Shown here one piece after another: positions 15,949-45,409 of a DNA stretch of 64,000 bases; position 1 is the first letter of the stretch; every line of letters starts with the position of its first letter. Where the stretch lies: IMG/VR virus record IMGVR_UViG_3300028886_001681, positions 32,001 to 96,000 of that record, one strand, 5' to 3'. The notes under the pieces are model-generated. The model saw only the letters and a program-made list of their open reading frames with translations. It searched no databases and was not told the origin of the DNA. Source of the DNA: a virus. Taxonomy: Duplodnaviria; Caudoviricetes. The position numbers were made by a program, and so were the translations under genes.

Positions 15949-16002
15949 GCGTTTTTGCCAAAATTCGCAACTATTTTAATCATTCCAAAAACGGAGGAAT
16001 CT

Positions 16003-16818
16003 ATGAAAACAGGAAAATTGGTCGAAAATTTCAAGAACAGAAAAATTTTCGAATGGAACGGAAAGGAATACTCCTACGACGAAATCTACAACTTGATAAA
16101 GGACTTGGATTATGTGAAGAGCGGAGAGGACTGCGATTGGCGGATTATAAGGGTGCGCGACATAAAGGACGGACGAGACTGCTACTGCTTGGCCTTCCAA
16201 GACTCGCGCTCGACGACGGATTGGATACACAACTTCATGTTCTTGCCTCGCTCCACCAAGGCCTACAAAGGATGGAGGAACAGGTTGAAGTTCGTGAAAG
16301 GCTTCTTCAAGGAATACCAATCGGCTAGGGACGAGATACACTCGAACCTTTCGCTCCTTTTGCAAGACATGGCGATTGAGCAAGATTGCGCGATTTCCGC
16401 CTTGAAGGTGTATGTGATAGGCTTCTCCTTGGGAGCGTCCATAGCCCCAATCGCTTGCGAGGACTTGAACTTCACTTACGGAGTGAACCCTGTCCTAATA
16501 GGATACGAGGGGGCGGAGTGTTGCTCGAACAACCACACTAGGAATGTGGTGGCCGACTCTTTGAACCAAGACGAGTCAATCTCTTTCGTGTTCGCCCAAG
16601 ACATAGTGCCTAGATGCCCCTTCTGCTTCGGAAGGAAACTGAAAGACTTCATCTACTTCTTGGACGACGGAACGGTGAAATTCCCCTTTAAATTCATAAA
16701 GTGGCTAGTTTCCACCATAACGAAGACCCCTTGGTATCACGCCAATGTCGACGAGGGAATATTGAGATACATGCCTTGGGACGAAAGCGAGTTGGCCAAG
16801 GCGGACAGAGGGGAGTAG
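16003..16818 (+). CDS. class 3 lipase / alpha-beta hydrolase
   Basis: GFSLG nucleophile elbow, DW..N, GF..EY, DIVP, C-terminal His; GGAGG RBS; CAACTATTT upstream. Confidence 0.8.
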   Translation: MKTGKLVENFKNRKIFEWNGKEYSYDEIYNLIKDLDYVKSGEDCDWRIIRVRDIKDGRDCYCLAFQDSRSTTDWIHNFMFLPRSTKAYKGWRNRLKFVKGFFKEYQSARDEIHSNLSLLLQDMAIEQDCAISALKVYVIGFSLGASIAPIACEDLNFTYGVNPVLIGYEGAECCSNNHTRNVVADSLNQDESISFVFAQDIVPRCPFCFGRKLKDFIYFLDDGTVKFPFKFIKWLVSTITKTPWYHANVDEGILRYMPWDESELAKADRGE

Positions 16819-31517: not shown

Positions 31518-31691
31518 TCAAGCGTTCGGATTGTTTCTCATGCAATCGCTGATTCTTTTGACTTCCACAATCTTGTTGTTGGGAAACTTCTTCCTAGCCT
31601 CTAGTTCCGCGCAATATCCGTCGGCAGTCACACAGACATATTCGGAAGGCTTTCCGCTTTCGTCAACCATTTCGACTTTATACTTATACAT
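31518..31691 (-). CDS. small hypothetical protein
   Basis: MYKYKVEM start with GGAGG RBS inside the TopIB 3' end. Confidence 0.55.
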   Translation of the reverse strand: MYKYKVEMVDESGKPSEYVCVTADGYCAELEARKKFPNNKIVEVKRISDCMRNNPNA

Positions 31692-32406
31692 TGGGGTATT
31701 TCCTCCAATAATCGGAAGGCACATTGTTAGCCCAAACATTGAATCTTTCGACCAAAGACTTGGAATAAATCGTCGTAGGCTCGTGGTTCGTATCCTTGCA
31801 CAATGAATATGCCACTTTCGGATTTGAGTAGTTTGTCATCGCGGTATTCAAAGCGATGTTTCTGTTTTCCGAATTGGATTTGGCCAATTTCTTAATGTCC
31901 TTGAATTTCTGTTCCGCCCCCTTCAACTTGTCGTTCAATTCTTTTCTTTGAGCGGATATTTCGCTCAATTTCTCCTTGAGAAGTTTTCCGTCAAGGCAAG
32001 ATTTGTAGTCGGATTCTAGTCCGTCAAGTTTCGCCAATTTTTTCTCTATTGAATTTTTGGACTTGTCGAACGAAGCCTTCGCTTTCTTGGTTTTGTTTTT
32101 CGTGGATTCGTCAATTTTTTCGTTTTGCTCTTTGGTTAGCGTTTTCTTATGGTTGAGTTTAATCGTGACCACTTTAGCGCAATCCATGTATTGATTCTTG
32201 AACTGTTTGTCGGTCAGATTGCTCCAATCTCTCTTTTGAATTTCTTCCGCAAGCAAAGATGTGCCGAAATAAGTTCTGAATGTTTTTGCTGTTGCGAACT
32301 CATATTTATTTTTTATTGTTTCCAATAACGAATCGTCAATTTCAAATTTATCGACCGATAGCAAGTTCTTCAAGCGTTTTGGTAATTTTGTCATAATTAT
32401 AAGCAT
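31684..32406 (-). CDS. DNA topoisomerase IB, C-terminal part (linker and catalytic Tyr)
   Basis: AKTFRTY, KLNH, coiled-coil linker, ALNTAMTNYSNPK; AAGGAGGG RBS 5 nt before ATG at 32406. Confidence 0.88.
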   Translation of the reverse strand: MLIIMTKLPKRLKNLLSVDKFEIDDSLLETIKNKYEFATAKTFRTYFGTSLLAEEIQKRDWSNLTDKQFKNQYMDCAKVVTIKLNHKKTLTKEQNEKIDESTKNKTKKAKASFDKSKNSIEKKLAKLDGLESDYKSCLDGKLLKEKLSEISAQRKELNDKLKGAEQKFKDIKKLAKSNSENRNIALNTAMTNYSNPKVAYSLCKDTNHEPTTIYSKSLVERFNVWANNVPSDYWRKYPNV

Positions 32407-33292
32407 ATTTGCCCTCCTTAATATTATTATATACTGTTTGTGTGTATTCGTCAAAATAATTTTTATAAACTTTTATAAAATCATTCCAAGCAATATCAAT
32501 GTTAAATTTATTATATAAAAATTGTTGTAATGCTTTATTTGATTTTATTTTTAATTTTACTTTTTCATTTTTAGCGATGTTTTTTTCACCCTTCATGGAA
32601 TCACTTCGTATTTTTTTACTTTCTTCAGTGATTCCATTTTTGCGTTTTTCAGAATAAATTTTTTTATCTCCATCGGATAAAGAATCCCAAAACATTTTAT
32701 TTTTTTCAGATTTATTTTTCTTTTCTTTTTCATTCCAATGTTTCCCTTTCATTGGATTGATATAATTTTTTTGTTTTGCTAATTTTTTATGAGTTTTGCT
32801 TGATTTTTCTTTCAATTCATTTGTCCACATTTCTTTAACTTTTTGTTTATGAAAATCTTTAACTTTTTCAAAGCCATCTCTTTGATGTTGTCTTAATGTA
32901 TCGAATTCTTCTTTTGATAAAGATTTATACCATGATTTTGTAGATTGAGATTTTTTTAATTTTTGTTCATCAGTTATATATAAATTATAATTAGATTCCC
33001 CACCTTCGGTCATGTTGTATCCAAAATTTAAATCATTGGAATGAAAAAGTTTAATTAATCTTTTTTCCCAATAATTTAAGTCATAAGTTTCAATTAATAT
33101 TTCAAAAGAAAAATTTTTAACGCCATATTTTCTTATTGCTTTATGAATATAACAATCATCTTTTGAATTTATATGAGAAATCCATCTATTGTGAATATCA
33201 ATTGATTGACCGATATAAACTTTATGATTTATGAGATTTTCAATTTTATAAATTCCACTAATATGATTATTATATATTTTATGTCTACTCAT
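32348..33292 (-). CDS. GIY-YIG homing endonuclease inserted in the TopIB gene
   Basis: SGIYKI.N.IN.KVYIGQS..I..RW..H, GYN...GG; AT-rich; overlaps both TopIB parts. Confidence 0.92.
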   Translation of the reverse strand: MSRHKIYNNHISGIYKIENLINHKVYIGQSIDIHNRWISHINSKDDCYIHKAIRKYGVKNFSFEILIETYDLNYWEKRLIKLFHSNDLNFGYNMTEGGESNYNLYITDEQKLKKSQSTKSWYKSLSKEEFDTLRQHQRDGFEKVKDFHKQKVKEMWTNELKEKSSKTHKKLAKQKNYINPMKGKHWNEKEKKNKSEKNKMFWDSLSDGDKKIYSEKRKNGITEESKKIRSDSMKGEKNIAKNEKVKLKIKSNKALQQFLYNKFNIDIAWNDFIKVYKNYFDEYTQTVYNNIKEGKYAYNYDKITKTLEELAIGR

Positions 33293-34469
33293 TTAAATAA
33301 TCCATTACATTATATTTAACAATCAAACCTATCGCTAATTTAATGTCATTTTCATTTTTAGATAACAATAGTTCGTCAATTTTTATTTTTAAGCATACAT
33401 TATTTAAAAATTCGTTCACATCGTTAGACGATATTTTGTCGAACGCTCTGTCTTTTGGGCTTTTGTCTTTCAAGCATTTTTTCAACGAATCAAAAGCGTC
33501 CTCATCAACTTTCATCGTGTTGTCCATTACCATTGAGTCTTTACCCAAGAAATGCAAACGGACTTTTTTGCTTTCCAACAAAATGATGTTCTCAACTTTA
33601 AGGGTGGACGCTCCGACGACCCCATTGTTCCGTTTGTCCTCGTTGCCCGCTCGTATACCAAATTTAGAGATTATGTAGGCACAACAACCAATTTGCCGTT
33701 TCTTGGCGTTGTCGGACAAGTAAGCGTCTTTTATCGCCTTGGTGACCTTTCTGATGTTTTGTTGCAGAAGCCTAGCATTCTCGAATTTTTCCTCGTCGGA
33801 ATCCGCCTTGAATAAAGACTTGTTGGAAAACCAAATCGCCTTTTGAATCGTGACGCTAGGATTTCCAATCAACCGCTCGGTGTAGGTGGCAATTGAAGAG
33901 GTGTCCTTGAACGACACATCCTTCCATTTGTGAGTTCCGTAATCGCACGGAAACGGATAAGACGAATTGATTGACACATCTTCAGGCATTACATCTTCCA
34001 CAACAAATCCGCTCCATTCGCAAGCACCGCGCCCTATGAATATTCGGCTAGACTCGATTAATGAGTTTCCTATCTCAACCTTCTCTCCGTCAACCAAAGC
34101 GTAGCCGTAGGTTTCCTTCCATTTTTTGTTTTCTTCCGCTATTTCCTTTCTATGTTCTTTATTGTAAAGTTTCTTTTCTTCCGCGTATTTTTCTTTAATC
34201 GCTTTCATTCTTGACAGAACCGTTTCGAAGTCGGACGGAAATTTCAATTCCTTCTGTTCCTTCGTCAGTTCCGTTTTTAATGACTTATAAAAATTCTTTT
34301 GGTAGACATTTTCGCTTTTGTATTTGTCCGCCAAAGTAGACCACATGAAGAGCCATTTCACCGCTCGATATGACAATCTCATTTTATTCTCGTTGGAATA
34401 ATATTCGTCAATGTAGGGTAATTCCTTGGGGAATTTCACGCACCCTTCAATTAATTTGAGTTCTTTCAT
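33285..34469 (-). CDS. DNA topoisomerase IB, N-terminal/core part
   Basis: YGYALVDG...IGN...F.GRG...PEDVSIN; KFE.AR; GIRAGNE; GASTL; FLGKDS. Confidence 0.9.
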   Translation of the reverse strand: MKELKLIEGCVKFPKELPYIDEYYSNENKMRLSYRAVKWLFMWSTLADKYKSENVYQKNFYKSLKTELTKEQKELKFPSDFETVLSRMKAIKEKYAEEKKLYNKEHRKEIAEENKKWKETYGYALVDGEKVEIGNSLIESSRIFIGRGACEWSGFVVEDVMPEDVSINSSYPFPCDYGTHKWKDVSFKDTSSIATYTERLIGNPSVTIQKAIWFSNKSLFKADSDEEKFENARLLQQNIRKVTKAIKDAYLSDNAKKRQIGCCAYIISKFGIRAGNEDKRNNGVVGASTLKVENIILLESKKVRLHFLGKDSMVMDNTMKVDEDAFDSLKKCLKDKSPKDRAFDKISSNDVNEFLNNVCLKIKIDELLLSKNENDIKLAIGLIVKYNVMDYLNE

Positions 34470-34478
34470 ATGTTTTCC

Positions 34479-34853
34479 TTAAAATTGATTTCCGTTTTCG
34501 TCCAAGAAGTTGGACATGAAGTAAACGACAGGCACCAAATGAACCGAGGCCACGCTCTTCCATTCCGACAACTCGACATTCCAACAGTCCGCGAACCGCA
34601 AGCCTCTGAACACCCACTTCGTTCCGTTGGCGTCTATGGCGAAGACCTCTCCGTTCGACGAGTATAGCCTAGAGAACAACCTCTGAACCAACTCTTCCTT
34701 GGGGCACTCGTCATGGTAACGTTTGTGCTCGATTCTGTCCTTTCCGTTGAAAATCACTCTGTCCAAGTAGTCCGTTCCGCTCTTTATCAAGTTTCCGCAC
34801 TTTAGGCACACATAGTCCTTCTTGGCAGTCCTTACGATGATGGAATCGCTCAT
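34479..34853 (-). CDS. Zn-binding hypothetical protein
   Basis: RTAKKDYVCLKC...YHDEC; first gene after promoter. Confidence 0.65.
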   Translation of the reverse strand: MSDSIIVRTAKKDYVCLKCGNLIKSGTDYLDRVIFNGKDRIEHKRYHDECPKEELVQRLFSRLYSSNGEVFAIDANGTKWVFRGLRFADCWNVELSEWKSVASVHLVPVVYFMSNFLDENGNQF

Positions 34854-34889: not shown

Positions 34890-34918
34890 ATTATAGCATG
34901 TATTGCTCGCTTTGTCAA
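34890..34918 (-). promoter_or_regulatory. sigma70-type promoter (extended -10) for the topoisomerase/thyX/clpP operon
   Basis: TTGACA-N17-TATAAT with TG extension. Confidence 0.85.
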
Positions 34919-34928
34919 GGAAAAAATG

Positions 34929-35217
34929 AAAAAAAAATCCACCCATGTTGTGGGTGGAGTCCGATGTGATTGCGTCACTTTGAGCGTTCGTTTTACACAC
35001 ACTCGCTTGCAAGAAACTAGGTTCTTGGTGGTTCTCCTTTTGTTCAAAGGCATACTTTTGGTAACTACCACTTATGTTTTCTCTTTTGTTCTTATCGCCA
35101 CCACATCCCACAATGCTTGTGATGGCTAAGTCAGAACACACTTCCGCTTTTTCAAGAGCAGTAACTCAGACAAACCCACTTGGGTTAGAACAATGTGAAT
35201 TTGTTATTTCCGACCGT
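34929..35217 (-). ncRNA. candidate ~290-nt structured ncRNA
   Basis: TAACTATTT upstream, many stems, ends in TCCACCCA/TGGGTGGA terminator plus U tract; no credible ORF. Confidence 0.55.
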
Positions 35218-35232
35218 TTCTTAAATAGTTAG

Positions 35233-35760
35233 GGTTGGAAACATCGGTTAGTTTATCACGATGGTTTTTATAGAGAATATCAATCGGCAAGAGATGAAAT
35301 AAAATCCTATTTATCTCCATTGCTTCAAGATTTAGCAATAGAACAAAGTTGCCGCATAGATGAATTAAAACTTTATGTGATTGGCTTTTCTTTGGGTGGT
35401 TCAATTGCACCTATCGCTATGGAAGATTTTTATGAAGTTTATGCTATAAAACCAACATCGATTGCTTTTGAAGGTGCGAATCCGTGTGAAAGTTTACATA
35501 CTAGAAATTATCTGATGAATTGTATGAATCTTGATGAATCTATAGCATTTGTATATTCAAACGATTTTGTTCCAAGATGTGCCCCATTCTTCGGTAAAAA
35601 ATTAAAAGATATTATTTATTATTTAGACGACCATAAATGTAAGTTTCCGTTTTATTTTATAAAGAAGATAATCTCATTCATAAAAGATACAGAGTATTAT
35701 CATACTAGTGTGGATGAGGGTATAAGAAAATATATGCCTACAGAATGGGGATTAAATTAA
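35233..35760 (+). pseudogene. 5'-truncated paralogue of the class 3 lipase
   Basis: GWKHRL..DGFYREYQSARDEI..GFSLGG aligns with 16003-16818; in-frame TAG at 35230; N-terminal ~70 aa missing. Confidence 0.75.
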
Positions 35761-35911
35761 AAAAAATGTACTCTATTTAATAGGGTACAAATTTTATATA
35801 AATTTGATTTGATTTTTTTATATTTTAACTTATATATTCCAACGCAACGTATGTGCATAAAGGATTGGTTTCTCCCACCCTCTAAAGAGTAGGGAGATTA
35901 ATTTGGTGTGA

Positions 35912-37960
35912 TTACATAGGGTCAATCATCTGTGCCATTGCACAAACAAATCCACCATCATGCAGGAGCGTTCCATATTCTGTTATGCCTTGGATATCTA
36001 TAGTGCCTCCACACTTTACAAATGTAGTAGTAACGTTATTAAATGTTCCAGCTTGTGAAACAGCATTAAATGCATAAACGCCCATCCACGCACCATGGCT
36101 ACTAGATAAGGTCAGTTGTACTCTATAGCGTGTTCCCGCAACACAACCAAACTTCTGTTGAGCGTACCATAACAGACTATCACTCTGTGCAGTCTTAAAG
36201 ACTTTTATTTCATTCTCAGTGACAAGTTTATATATAGGTAGAACAATGCCAGTAGGTTCTACTGTGGTTTTAATTCCCATACCAGTCCATCTACCATACA
36301 CCTTGACATGAGCATAACAATATGACTGCATACCTAGCCATATATGTTTATTATTATCCAACCTAAGTTGTTCAGTAGCCGATGTTTGAGTATCGTTTAA
36401 ATTTACTGCTTTAATATAATTTAAGTCAGCCATAGTTCCACTACAAGAAACTAATATCTTTGACTGACCCCCATCTACTCTACCGTAAGTTATTTCATAG
36501 AATAAAAATGCTTGCGAATTACTTGTAGATGTCGATGTTCCCAAATCAAACCAAGCATAATTATCACCACCAACTGATAATTGATAGTCGCTTAAAGTTA
36601 TATTTGTCAAATTCTCTGTTGTAGTAAGTTTCTGTATAGTCCATGAATCTGATAATGAATAAGTCTTGTATACATAGTATTCTGCTCCTGCTTCAGAACG
36701 TAAATTCCCAATACCATACCAATAGCCTTCTATGCCTATATTAATGCAGATGTCGTAGTCATGCCACAATGCCGTACTTGATAAATAAGCCTTTCCTTTA
36801 TAAAAACCTGTTCCTCTTGTTTTTAAGTCTGCTAAGAGAGCATTCATATCAGTAAAAGTATCTGACGAAAGTATCTTAACACTATTATCCTCTGTAGCAA
36901 GTTTCTTCCAACTAGACCATGTTCCGTTTACCCTTACACGATAATATTGCTCTCCTTCCGTATTAACTGTGTATTGAGCAATGTCGTCAGAAATAGAAGT
37001 TGTGTTTTTACTTTGTACTTGTAAGATGCAGTATGCACTAGGAATGTTAGTACATCCCGTAGTGAGATAATACAATCCTGTAGTGGTGAGTGTATTTGCA
37101 TCAGTATTTGATACTGCGGTGTATGCTTTAATTTTTTCAATATCACTTGTGTTCTGTGCAATAGCACCTTCAACAGTAGAAGCACCTGCAATTGGAGAAG
37201 ATAAATCTTTTTTCTGATAATCAGTAAGGTCAAATGCGTTACCCATGTAGTTGAACAGATAAGTGTCCGCACCTGCCTTGATGATTCCAACGTTATCACC
37301 TATATTGATTGTAAGTCCTGCTCCGTTGATAAACAAAGCACTTGTAGTTCCGCTATCACTCATCGTGTATATATTTCCTACATTATCCTCAATCAATAAA
37401 CTTGATGTAAGTTCTGCACAAGTCAATTCTCCACGAGGAGTGTAGATTGAACTTAAAGCATTATTAATGGCACTGTAAACAGAACCGCTTTCGACCAACT
37501 CATGTGAATTTGGTCTAACCAAGTCAGTAAAATTTTTTCCGCTTGCAGTTCCTAATCCACCTTTAATCTCATCTATAGCATCTTGTACATTAGTTGCAAT
37601 AAGTTCACTTGTAGTGTTATCATAAGAAACATCAGTCGCAGTTGCATTGCTAGGTTGTACGTTCTTTTGAACCCAAGAATATGTCGGTGTAGATTCTCCG
37701 TCAGAAACACATTCATAGAAATAACCATTAACATAAGTTCCCGTACTTCCAATGAATTCGACTATCATGTTTTCATTTTCTGCACTAGCAATAGGCATTG
37801 TGTCAACTTGAATGGAAGAACCACCACTCGAAAGGTCACCATCTTCATAGGCTTGCTGAATGGATTTTGAAGTTCCGTCTATATCTATACCCACATTTTC
37901 TGATTCTACTGCATAGAAATCGTTTGACATGGGTGCGAGAGTGTCTGCAAGTTTAATCAT
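35912..37960 (-). CDS. tail fibre / receptor-binding-like structural protein
   Basis: S/T-rich; NVQDAIDE; DANTLTTTGLYY...WSSWKKL knob-like module; AACTATTT upstream. Confidence 0.7.
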   Translation of the reverse strand: MIKLADTLAPMSNDFYAVESENVGIDIDGTSKSIQQAYEDGDLSSGGSSIQVDTMPIASAENENMIVEFIGSTGTYVNGYFYECVSDGESTPTYSWVQKNVQPSNATATDVSYDNTTSELIATNVQDAIDEIKGGLGTASGKNFTDLVRPNSHELVESGSVYSAINNALSSIYTPRGELTCAELTSSLLIEDNVGNIYTMSDSGTTSALFINGAGLTINIGDNVGIIKAGADTYLFNYMGNAFDLTDYQKKDLSSPIAGASTVEGAIAQNTSDIEKIKAYTAVSNTDANTLTTTGLYYLTTGCTNIPSAYCILQVQSKNTTSISDDIAQYTVNTEGEQYYRVRVNGTWSSWKKLATEDNSVKILSSDTFTDMNALLADLKTRGTGFYKGKAYLSSTALWHDYDICINIGIEGYWYGIGNLRSEAGAEYYVYKTYSLSDSWTIQKLTTTENLTNITLSDYQLSVGGDNYAWFDLGTSTSTSNSQAFLFYEITYGRVDGGQSKILVSCSGTMADLNYIKAVNLNDTQTSATEQLRLDNNKHIWLGMQSYCYAHVKVYGRWTGMGIKTTVEPTGIVLPIYKLVTENEIKVFKTAQSDSLLWYAQQKFGCVAGTRYRVQLTLSSSHGAWMGVYAFNAVSQAGTFNNVTTTFVKCGGTIDIQGITEYGTLLHDGGFVCAMAQMIDPM

Positions 37961-44046: not shown

Positions 44047-44074
44047 TTTCCCAATCGGATTAACTATTTGTATT

Positions 44075-45409
44075 ATGAAAGAAACATTGATAGAAATATT
44101 TAAGAAAAAAGGCATTCTCAATAAAAATAACGGACGAAAATTCTGTTATAAAAATTATTGGGACGACGAATGCGAATCGTTGTGGGGAAAATATTCTTCT
44201 AATTATAGAAGTAATGATGAAGCGTGGTATTGCTTGTCTAAAAATGTAGAACCTCCGAAATGTCCATTGTGTGATAAGTTATGTAGATTTGTGGGCGGAA
44301 AGCGAGGTTATAAAATAACTTGCGAAACTTGTGACCCAAATAAAGTTCCGTCTAAATTAAAACATTTTTCCAAGACTATTTCTAAAAGAACAGAAGAAGA
44401 AAAAAGGAAAATCTTTGAAAAAAGAAAACAAACTAATTTAGAATTATACGGAGATGAAAATTTTACATTGTATGGCTCTAAATCTTTCAAAGAAAACATG
44501 TTGAATAAATATGGCAATGAAAATTACTCTAATCACGAAAAAGCAAAAGAAACTAGTATCGAACGATATGGTGTGGATTGCAATTTTAAAAGGGAAGGAT
44601 TTCAACAATATTCTGCGAATAAAAAACGAGAACTATACGGCAACGCCTCTAATTATGAAAAAACCATGAAAACCAACATGAAGAGGTATGGTGTTCCCCA
44701 CATAGGACAATGTAGAGAAATAATAAATAAAAATAATCTCGAAAAACAAGAAAAATATGATAAATTCGAAATTGAAAACGATTGCACATCGAGGAGTAAA
44801 TTAAAAAAATTATACGGTGTAGGATGGTGGTCTCTCGGTATAGAATATCTTGAATACATGGGGCATTATTTTGTACCTAATGAATTTTTAAAAGATATAA
44901 TAGAATATTCTAGCGAAGGTACGCACACCAACAGTTATATTTCTAAACGAGAAGTTGAGCTTAGAAATTACATTAAAGAAATTTATGATGGTGAAATTCT
45001 CAACAATGTGACCAATGTCGTAAAAAATAACAATCATAGATATTTTGAATTAGATTTGTATTTGCCTCGATTAAAAATTGCATTTGATTTTGACGGAATG
45101 TATTGGCATTCCATAAAATTTAAAGATAAATATTATCATCAAAGAAAAAGTGTATGTTGTTTGGAGCAAGGGGTTAGATTGGCTCATATACAAGAAGATG
45201 AATGGGTGAATAATCGTGAGGTTTTGTGCGATAAAATAAGACAATTAATTTTTGAAAACAAAACATTTAATGATGGTTGTTTCCCACCTTCGTTGAACGA
45301 TTATAATTTTTCTGAACCTAGAAAGATTATGATTGATAAATTTGGTAAAAAAACACTTGACGAAAGCCAGTGTAATTTAATATATTATGATACAGGAGTT
45401 ATTTTATGA
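44075..45409 (+). CDS. homing endonuclease (Hef/Vsr-like) splitting nrdD
   Basis: Zn finger, T...YG repeats, ELD.Y.P.LKIAF.FDG.YWHS...EDEW; TAACTATTT 5 nt before ATG. Confidence 0.82.
   Translation: MKETLIEIFKKKGILNKNNGRKFCYKNYWDDECESLWGKYSSNYRSNDEAWYCLSKNVEPPKCPLCDKLCRFVGGKRGYKITCETCDPNKVPSKLKHFSKTISKRTEEEKRKIFEKRKQTNLELYGDENFTLYGSKSFKENMLNKYGNENYSNHEKAKETSIERYGVDCNFKREGFQQYSANKKRELYGNASNYEKTMKTNMKRYGVPHIGQCREIINKNNLEKQEKYDKFEIENDCTSRSKLKKLYGVGWWSLGIEYLEYMGHYFVPNEFLKDIIEYSSEGTHTNSYISKREVELRNYIKEIYDGEILNNVTNVVKNNNHRYFELDLYLPRLKIAFDFDGMYWHSIKFKDKYYHQRKSVCCLEQGVRLAHIQEDEWVNNREVLCDKIRQLIFENKTFNDGCFPPSLNDYNFSEPRKIMIDKFGKKTLDESQCNLIYYDTGVIL

Follow-up and report, generated by a model that had tools for sequence, protein, structure and literature searches.

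A candidate structured non-coding RNA with two divergent alleles at a module boundary of a large rumen phage

To our knowledge, structured phage RNAs other than tRNAs, introns and riboswitches are few, and most of them have no known function. In the phi29 pRNA, loops pair between molecules, and the RNA builds a ring on the portal. In bacteria, many small RNAs derived from 3′ untranslated regions (3′ UTRs) arise from the terminator-proximal 3′ end of a coding transcript. In Shiga-toxin phages, a terminated by-product of the late promoter, StxS, acts as a regulatory RNA in trans (PMC7547250). GOLLD RNA rises during lysis, and the kissing loops that covariation has defined in ROOL and GOLLD include intermolecular contacts, a quaternary kissing loop of ROOL having first been read as a tertiary contact (preprint 10.1101/2024.12.08.627333).

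The locus described here belongs to a 160-kb IMG/VR virus record, estimated to be 77% complete, of which positions 32001–96000 were analysed as one stretch of 64,000 nucleotides (the window, to which all coordinates refer unless otherwise stated). A sequence-only reading of the window had pointed to a ~290-nt structured RNA on the minus strand, with its own promoter motif and terminator, as an undescribed, late-expressed phage RNA possibly acquired as a module. Having followed up this proposal, we consider with moderate confidence that 34930–35217 (minus strand) is a new non-coding RNA of ~285 nt, made late, acting as a free molecule and compactly folded.

The locus and its transcription signals

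With at least 160 kb of double-stranded DNA and a gene for a tail sheath, the phage belongs among the large tailed phages. Its record has a G+C content of 38.5%, and its only tRNA genes are two for tRNA-Glu, both outside the window. From upstream to downstream of the RNA, the locus contains the following features:

35912–37960: tail-fibre-like gene, 682 aa, upstream of the RNA element
35767–35789, unstranded: two-way terminator hairpin T2′, behind the tail-fibre-like gene
35233–35760, plus strand: 5′-truncated class-3 lipase paralogue on the strand opposite to the RNA, aligning to residues 106–274 of the full copy at 15955–16818
35223–35231, minus strand: exact promoter-type 9-mer TAACTATTT, with a predicted RNA start at ~35217
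34930–35217, minus strand: candidate non-coding RNA, ~285 nt, window allele, with homology to a second allele through the terminator
34929–34958, minus strand: intrinsic terminator T1, an 8-bp G+C-rich stem (34958–34938) and then nine U
34890–34918, minus strand: sigma-70 promoter agreeing with the consensus at 12 of 12 positions; extended −10 (preceding TG)
34479–34853, minus strand: 124-aa cysteine/histidine-rich ORF downstream of the element, always found behind it

Along the minus strand, TAACTATTT is followed by ~285 nt without a convincing ORF, then by the terminator, the sigma-70 promoter and the 124-aa ORF. The motif (35231–35223), the terminator hairpin and its U tract (T9) are as the earlier reading described them. 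The sigma-70 promoter is identical in all contigs; it lies outside the RNA and serves the next gene. The operon downstream begins with the 124-aa ORF and continues with a eukaryote-type topoisomerase IB split by a GIY-YIG gene, and ThyX is also encoded downstream. The 124-aa protein has an identical copy on 14 metagenome contigs and a 90%-cluster member on one further contig. It belongs to no Pfam or PHROG family, a protein atlas search with it returned only unnamed phage proteins, and its AlphaFold model (pLDDT 34) is unusable; a CxxC ... HDEC pattern is invariant between it and its two distant homologues. The GIY-YIG insertion in the topoisomerase gene (31684–34469) is polymorphic among contigs whose 124-aa neighbour is identical: such contigs may carry an intact topoisomerase of 564–567 aa and no endonuclease (e.g., at L002:1669–3363, related loci being given L numbers), and at L003:643–2321 the topoisomerase consists of two ORFs (136 and 411 aa), also without a GIY-YIG gene.

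On the other side of the element, lipase homology starts at 35233, directly beside the motif, and nothing upstream of this position aligns to the full copy; the unit does abut the lipase truncation point, as had been remarked. Could the element then be the decayed 5′ end of the lipase gene? This candidate was rejected, since there is no protein similarity upstream of 35233 and the same stretch is found in L002, which has no lipase.

The 9-mer TAACTATTT occurs in 36 exact copies in the 160-kb genome, against ~5 expected from composition (~7-fold enrichment). Nearly all copies are intergenic and lie 14–285 nt upstream of same-strand ORF starts, the genes behind them including those for the tail sheath, the adjacent tail-fibre-like protein, several HNH homing endonucleases and a transposase-like protein. 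A by-product of the analysis is a definition of the late-type promoter core of this phage group as TAACTATTT. In six cases an ATG comes only 5–9 nt after the motif (examples lie at 44061–44077 in the window and at 118032, 142844, 153671 and 5525 in the record), so that transcripts would start ~6 nt after TAACTATTT. These six copies have no Shine-Dalgarno sequence, and the sequence suggests that the phage makes leaderless late mRNAs. Applied to the element, the ATG spacing predicts a start at ~35217, one base from the point where homology to L002 begins (35218); the start at 35217 that had been guessed earlier appears well founded on both counts.

Does the RNA then have a promoter motif of its own, as was claimed? 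The claim finds partial support. In favour of it, the 9-mer is enriched and typically lies upstream of genes. Against it, the element's copy has the least typical flanks of all 36, which are G+C-rich and include a CCC immediately before the motif, positions held by A or T in the other copies, and the second allele has no TAACTATTT within one mismatch upstream. Elsewhere in the record (G000), three tandem copies, all within 55 nt, stand before a transposase-like gene of 431 aa (phrog_506; G000:C1:153625–154980, outside the window). Back-to-back inverted copies, AAATAGTTA adjoining TAACTATTT, are found at G000:C1:104669–104695 and 118023–118040 (72669–72695 and 86023–86040 in window numbering, beyond its 64000 bases), and these are probably divergent promoters sharing one site.

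An element at such a place might also act as DNA, double- or single-stranded, in the manner of a replication origin or of a packaging or recombination signal. Its position at a module boundary, that is, at a recombination hot spot, would suit this, and G-T wobble pairs also form in DNA hairpins. We nevertheless hold a DNA-level role to be very improbable: the element is bounded by a promoter-type motif on one side and by a terminator with a U tract on the other; the phage is a large one with double-stranded DNA and a sheathed tail; the element contains neither iterons nor families of tandem or direct repeats, nor an A+T-rich stretch for unwinding; and its G+C content is above the genome mean (42.5% in the window allele and 51% in the other allele, vs 38.5%). 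An argument from a G+C peak in itself fails for the window allele (42.5% vs 38.5%) and holds only for the other (51%). A covariance model of the element, searched against the genome for a second copy, matches only the element itself and the T2′ hairpin.

A second allele and its compensatory changes

The whole element is found upstream of the 124-aa gene in five loci (L002, L004, L005, L006 and L010) and its 3′ half in L003, and the loci carrying it derive from several independent rumen samples. The five loci represent one second allele: L004, L005 and L006 are identical, and a few bases distinguish L002 and L010 from L004. Between the window and L004 the element is 69% identical, with 82 substitutions over 267 aligned positions and 24 indel columns, whereas the adjoining downstream promoter and 124-aa gene are 97–100% identical between contigs. 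Similarity between the window and the second allele begins at 35218 in the comparison with L002 and at 35206 in that with L004, and in both it extends through the terminator; the element is kept in three different upstream contexts. Its distribution is narrow. Exact or gapped pattern scans of viral, metagenome and genome contigs gave no further homologues, blastn and tblastn against GenBank phages gave nothing useful, and related-locus searches with the 124-aa protein and with the lipase fragment gave no match. Neither the loci of distant homologues of the 124-aa gene nor L011–L014, relatives to which topoisomerase IB led, contain the element; L011–L014 were searched with nhmmer, blastn and the covariance model.

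The earlier statement that the element has no ORF with a ribosome-binding site agrees with the comparison of the alleles. No ORF is common to both, and substitutions between the window and L004 are distributed over the codon positions as 32/25/25. The lack of codon periodicity and the open frames that differ between alleles indicate that the element is non-coding, and a coding reading was rejected on these grounds together with the indels of 1, 1, 1 and 2 nt.

In comparison with shuffles, the fold of the window allele has a z-score of −2.45 for the minus strand, against −1.33 for the plus strand, and that of the second allele one of −3.97. Single-sequence folding is only suggestive, and it is the homologues that supply the decisive evidence; of the 84 pairs in the minimum free energy (MFE) structure of the window allele alone, 17, for the most part long-range, cannot form in L004. 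RNAalifold, run on four distinct sequences, gave local helices, and from its model a pairing between the purine tract and the terminator U-tract was removed, as were misaligned terminator columns. The curated model of 66 pairs is 99.6% paired and has 13 pairs changed on both sides. In addition, we enumerated all helices of at least 4 bp whose strands could pair in both alleles while occupying identical alignment columns. The top hit was not a local stem but a long-range helix between the H4 and H10 loops (AUUGUG/CGCAAU in the window, GCGAAG/CUUCGC in L004) with compensatory changes at five of its six pairs; the highest count for any helix in 200 column shuffles was three. The final model, which includes this loop–loop helix, has 72 pairs and is 99.3% paired. 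Its covariation, proposed earlier as a check, is strong: 18 of the 72 pairs are changed on both sides, against 0–2 double-changed pairs and 33–49% pairing in slid controls (partners shifted by 1–3 columns), each compensatory change being one event in a comparison of only two real lineages and the structure being partly derived from the same alignment on which it is scored. The helices of the model are arranged as follows:

35170–35204, minus strand: H1, the 5′ hairpin (35204–35193 with 35179–35170), the most sequence-conserved part
35128–35161, minus strand: H2 (35161–35157 with 35148–35144) and H3 (35143–35140 with 35131–35128)
35097–35126, minus strand: H4, a 9-bp stem with a 12-nt loop (35126–35118 with 35105–35097)
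35109–35114, minus strand: 5′ strand of the loop–loop (kissing) helix, AUUGUG in the H4 loop, pairing with 34974–34969
35072–35096, minus strand: purine-rich linker, probably single-stranded, unpaired in the curated model
35028–35071, minus strand: H5 (35071–35068 with 35031–35028), enclosing H6 and H7
35063–35061 with 35055–35053, minus strand: H6, with 1 compensatory pair
35050–35046 with 35040–35036, minus strand: H7, kept, and lengthened by a 12-nt insertion in the other allele
34962–35027, minus strand: span of H8, H9 and H10, with 1, 2 and 2 compensatory pairs, respectively
35027–35023 with 35014–35010, minus strand: H8
35004–34995 with 34991–34982, minus strand: H9
34980–34976 with 34968–34962, minus strand: H10
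34969–34974, minus strand: 3′ strand of the loop–loop helix, CGCAAU in the H10 loop

The best-supported of these predicted helices is the newly found long-range one (35114–35109 with 34974–34969), which is absent from the stems listed by the earlier reading. H1 retains all 10 of its pairs, with C-G replaced by U-G in two, and the region of this 5′ hairpin (alignment columns 20–64) contains only transitions and one indel between alleles. In the other allele H2 is longer by a matched A-U pair; two of the four pairs of H3 are compensatory, and H4 has four compensatory and two one-sided changes. H5 reads GUGG/CCAC in the window and GCGG/CCGC in the other allele, with one compensatory pair, and the terminator stems differ by paired changes as well (TCCACCC/GGGTGGA vs TGTACCC/GGGTACA). 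Between alleles that are 69% identical, the alignment shows ten predicted local helices, one predicted loop–loop helix and the terminator stem to be kept, and the pattern of change shows the predicted fold, not a protein, to be under purifying selection. A deviation is seen in L010:747–1053, where two nearby A-to-C changes (columns 108 and 117 of A2, the alignment used for testing stems) break one H4 pair and one loop–loop pair; jointly they create a small GCG/CGC hairpin, which could be an alternative conformer or an assembly error.

About 30 cells of the pair table are G-U and would be A-C mismatches on the plus strand, from which it follows that the functional strand is the minus one. A plus-strand RNA was rejected because of these G-U pairs and its weaker z-score (−1.33).

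Might all this still be a functionless spacer or the remnant of a decayed gene, with hairpins arisen by chance? The window allele's MFE z-score is only moderate (−2.45) and the distribution is narrow, both of which would fit. At 31% divergence, however, most pairs would be broken if the sequence were neutral; instead, 99% are paired, 18 are doubly changed and H2 has received a paired insertion. A mere spacer is thus barely credible.

The observation of a structured non-coding RNA made in the sequence-only reading is confirmed by these results, and its interpretation, with late expression as a prediction, is supported apart from the closing stem. Tested on A2, eight of its eleven stems are supported by the second allele, one is ambiguous and two are not conserved. 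Those kept are CTGCT/AGCGG (both arms having received a matching A/U insertion), GCCATCACA/TGTGGTGGC (4 compensatory pairs), CCTTT/AAAGG (extended by the 12-nt insertion), CAAGAA/TTCTTG (1 compensatory pair), GAGTGT/ACGCTC and GTGA/TCAC (2 compensatory pairs each) and the terminator hairpin (CC/GG to GT/AC); AACCC/GGGTT is compatible (C-G to U-G), though a longer alternative helix fits equally well. Seven of the eight pairs of CTGAGTTA/TGACTTAG are kept, but the stem competes with AAGU/ACUU (AGGC/GCCU in the other allele), a helix with 2 compensatory pairs. Finally, the closing stem TTGTTCT/AGAACAA and the stem TGGT/ACCA, which the second allele does not conserve, are replaced in the model by H5 and H6, with one compensatory pair each.

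Locus history and possible modes of action

To judge from the sequences compared, the locus is mosaic. L002 shares with the window and L004 only the block running from the element and its terminator through the promoter to the 124-aa gene, both flanks being different. The window is 97% identical to L003 from 34966 onward, yet the two have different element alleles, and contigs of the other allele carry the element without the lipase fragment. T2′ is identical at 33 of 36 positions to the terminator ending the element in L002, L004 and L010, is unique in this genome, and looks like a recombination footprint. In L014, a more distant relative (72% topoisomerase identity), the topoisomerase operon is immediately preceded by an intact 258-aa lipase_3 gene in the opposite orientation, and there is no element. 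The block made up of the truncated lipase, the motif and the element allele of the window would have been brought in by recombination at the module boundary. The notion of a unit acquired as a module fits this, the element being 69% identical vs 97% just downstream and the other contigs being without the lipase fragment. Intact lipase_3 genes with tRNA islands nearby are also seen in the relatives L014 (2437–3213, 67–806) and L012 (443–920); these islands comprise Met, Asp, Leu and Gln tRNAs, and none stands at the matching place in this genome.

How would the RNA be made? In this genome it would be produced late, starting ~6 nt after TAACTATTT and ending at T1. In the other allele, which is without the motif, it would be the 3′ end of the tail-fibre-gene transcript, obtained by read-through. 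The element as a whole can also be read as the cis-acting 3′ end of a late tail-fibre transcript, a structured 3′ UTR with its terminator that would shield the late mRNA from 3′ exonucleases and keep late transcription out of the sigma-70-driven replication operon. In L002 and L004/L005/L006/L010 it indeed trails tail-fibre-like genes by 60–210 nt, with no motif, and it ends ~20 nt before the −35 of the next promoter. For such a task, however, the terminator hairpin alone would suffice, and eleven helices with a covarying loop–loop contact are excessive. Furthermore, the window element is separated from the tail-fibre-like gene by T2′ and the 530-nt antisense lipase remnant, and still none of its helices is lost and a promoter motif marks the 5′ end. 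On these grounds a 3′ UTR is rather unlikely. The retention of every helix despite the cut-off from the tail-fibre-like gene favours a free RNA acting by its shape, as does the composition of the unit: a strong T1 and the exact motif flank the element, and only the element lies between them.

The operon downstream offers a further reading, in which the element is a cis-regulatory leader, riboswitch-like or acting by antitermination, that gates read-through at T1 into the genes behind it (124-aa ORF, topoisomerase IB). Attenuators classically have this arrangement, a structured RNA followed by a terminator and then a gene; loop–loop contacts are common in riboswitch aptamers; and the element and the 124-aa gene are always adjacent, a placement that counts against a free RNA. 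We consider a leader unlikely all the same. A perfect sigma-70 promoter stands between terminator and gene, T1 and T2 are strong and have long U tracts, the window's allele of the element was exchanged independently of the gene, and the distant homologues of the 124-aa gene are without the element. Enumeration of helices over only two alleles also gave no covarying alternative partner for the terminator 5′ arm, the sole candidate being four base pairs that the 5′ arm of H4 could form with the terminator's 3′ arm. This match (A2 columns 103–106/302–305, window ~35125–35122/34944–34941) contains three paired changes, falls in a poorly aligned stretch and may be due to chance.

The free, compact RNA that we prefer might bind a protein, serve as a scaffold or perhaps assemble with itself, and its nearly invariant 5′ hairpin and purine-rich linker would then possibly be the likeliest sites of contact. 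It is probably not a simple antisense regulator: a 14-mer antisense scan across the phage genome gave ~25 scattered inexact sites vs ~15 expected, which is close to chance. By analogy with phi29 pRNA and ROOL one may also imagine that the H4–H10 loop pairing is intermolecular and that the RNA assembles head-to-tail into a ring or cage. This idea is speculative and we think it doubtful, but if true, the element would be a new phage RNA, small and able to assemble with itself, whose task late in infection would be structural or one of sequestration.

Relation to described RNAs

No Rfam 15 family matches either allele, and the element is thus undescribed in Rfam 15, as had been supposed. Over the window, no family reaches its gathering score, and at E values up to 10 only noise of at most 19 bits is seen; the families covered include tRNA, tmRNA, RNase P, 6S, SRP, group I intron, ROOL, GOLLD, HEARO, T-box and riboswitches. 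ARAGORN and Rfam found no tRNA or tmRNA, in agreement with the earlier reading. A type III toxin–antitoxin RNA (ToxI-like) was rejected, there being no tandem repeats and a separate sigma-70 promoter before the gene. So was a CsrB/RsmZ-type sponge: the element has 5–8 GGA triplets, about the number expected by chance, and only two or three of them lie in loops or linkers. The template or guide RNA of a reverse transcriptase (DGR, retron, group II intron) was likewise rejected, PF00078 being absent from the 160-kb record (77% complete).

What makes the element attractive for study is its compactness (~285 nt, eleven helices and a loop–loop contact, with support from only two alleles) and the simplicity of its transcription unit, in which the RNA stands between promoter motif and terminator and no gene accompanies it. 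The element is a clean example of an RNA gene swapped as a cassette at a late/early module boundary. For RNA biologists, the loop–loop helix and multimer formation constitute a defined experimental target, although the host of the phage is uncultured.

Among described systems, lambda 6S RNA and StxS come close to the layout predicted for the element, in which a putative late-type promoter with an intrinsic terminator close behind it would give a short non-coding RNA upstream of a large operon. In the window allele, motif and terminator lie within ~300 nt with no shared ORF, which makes a candidate lambdoid PR′-type unit, the motif being absent in the other allele and the start being a predicted one. 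In contrast to lambda 6S RNA and StxS, to which it has no sequence or Rfam similarity, the element has a far more elaborate fold, and one of its alleles has no promoter of its own. Moreover, what follows here is not a set of late genes, as in the lambdoid PR′ case, where a Q-type antiterminator overrides the terminator, but replication genes with their own sigma-70 promoter: the 124-aa ORF, topoisomerase IB and ThyX.

In L002 and L004, the element would coincide with the terminator-proximal 3′ end of a protein-coding transcript, as do 3′-UTR-derived small RNAs. The latter, however, are usually 50–150 nt long with one seed region, whereas the element has ~285 nt and eleven helices, and, unlike them, it has no target in the phage genome in the 14-mer antisense scan.

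The likeness to phi29 pRNA lies in two loops that keep their complementarity through covarying changes (35114–35109/34974–34969, 5 of 6 pairs compensatory). The pRNA, though, is a molecule of 120–174 nt encoded at the genome end of small protein-primed podoviruses. The element is ~285 nt long, lies mid-genome in a tail-sheath phage of at least 160 kb, and has an unlike secondary structure.

ROOL and GOLLD are, like the element, phage-encoded and highly structured, with kissing loops found by covariation. ROOL was first seen in rumen data, and the element also comes from a rumen phage; both RNAs often have tRNA islands in their vicinity, and in relatives of this phage tRNA genes occupy the corresponding position. 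They are, however, two to three times longer (~580–800 nt and more), and their Rfam models do not match the element. Thus, while it belongs neither to the lambdoid transcripts nor to ROOL/GOLLD or pRNA, the element is best classed as a new RNA family of a known general kind.
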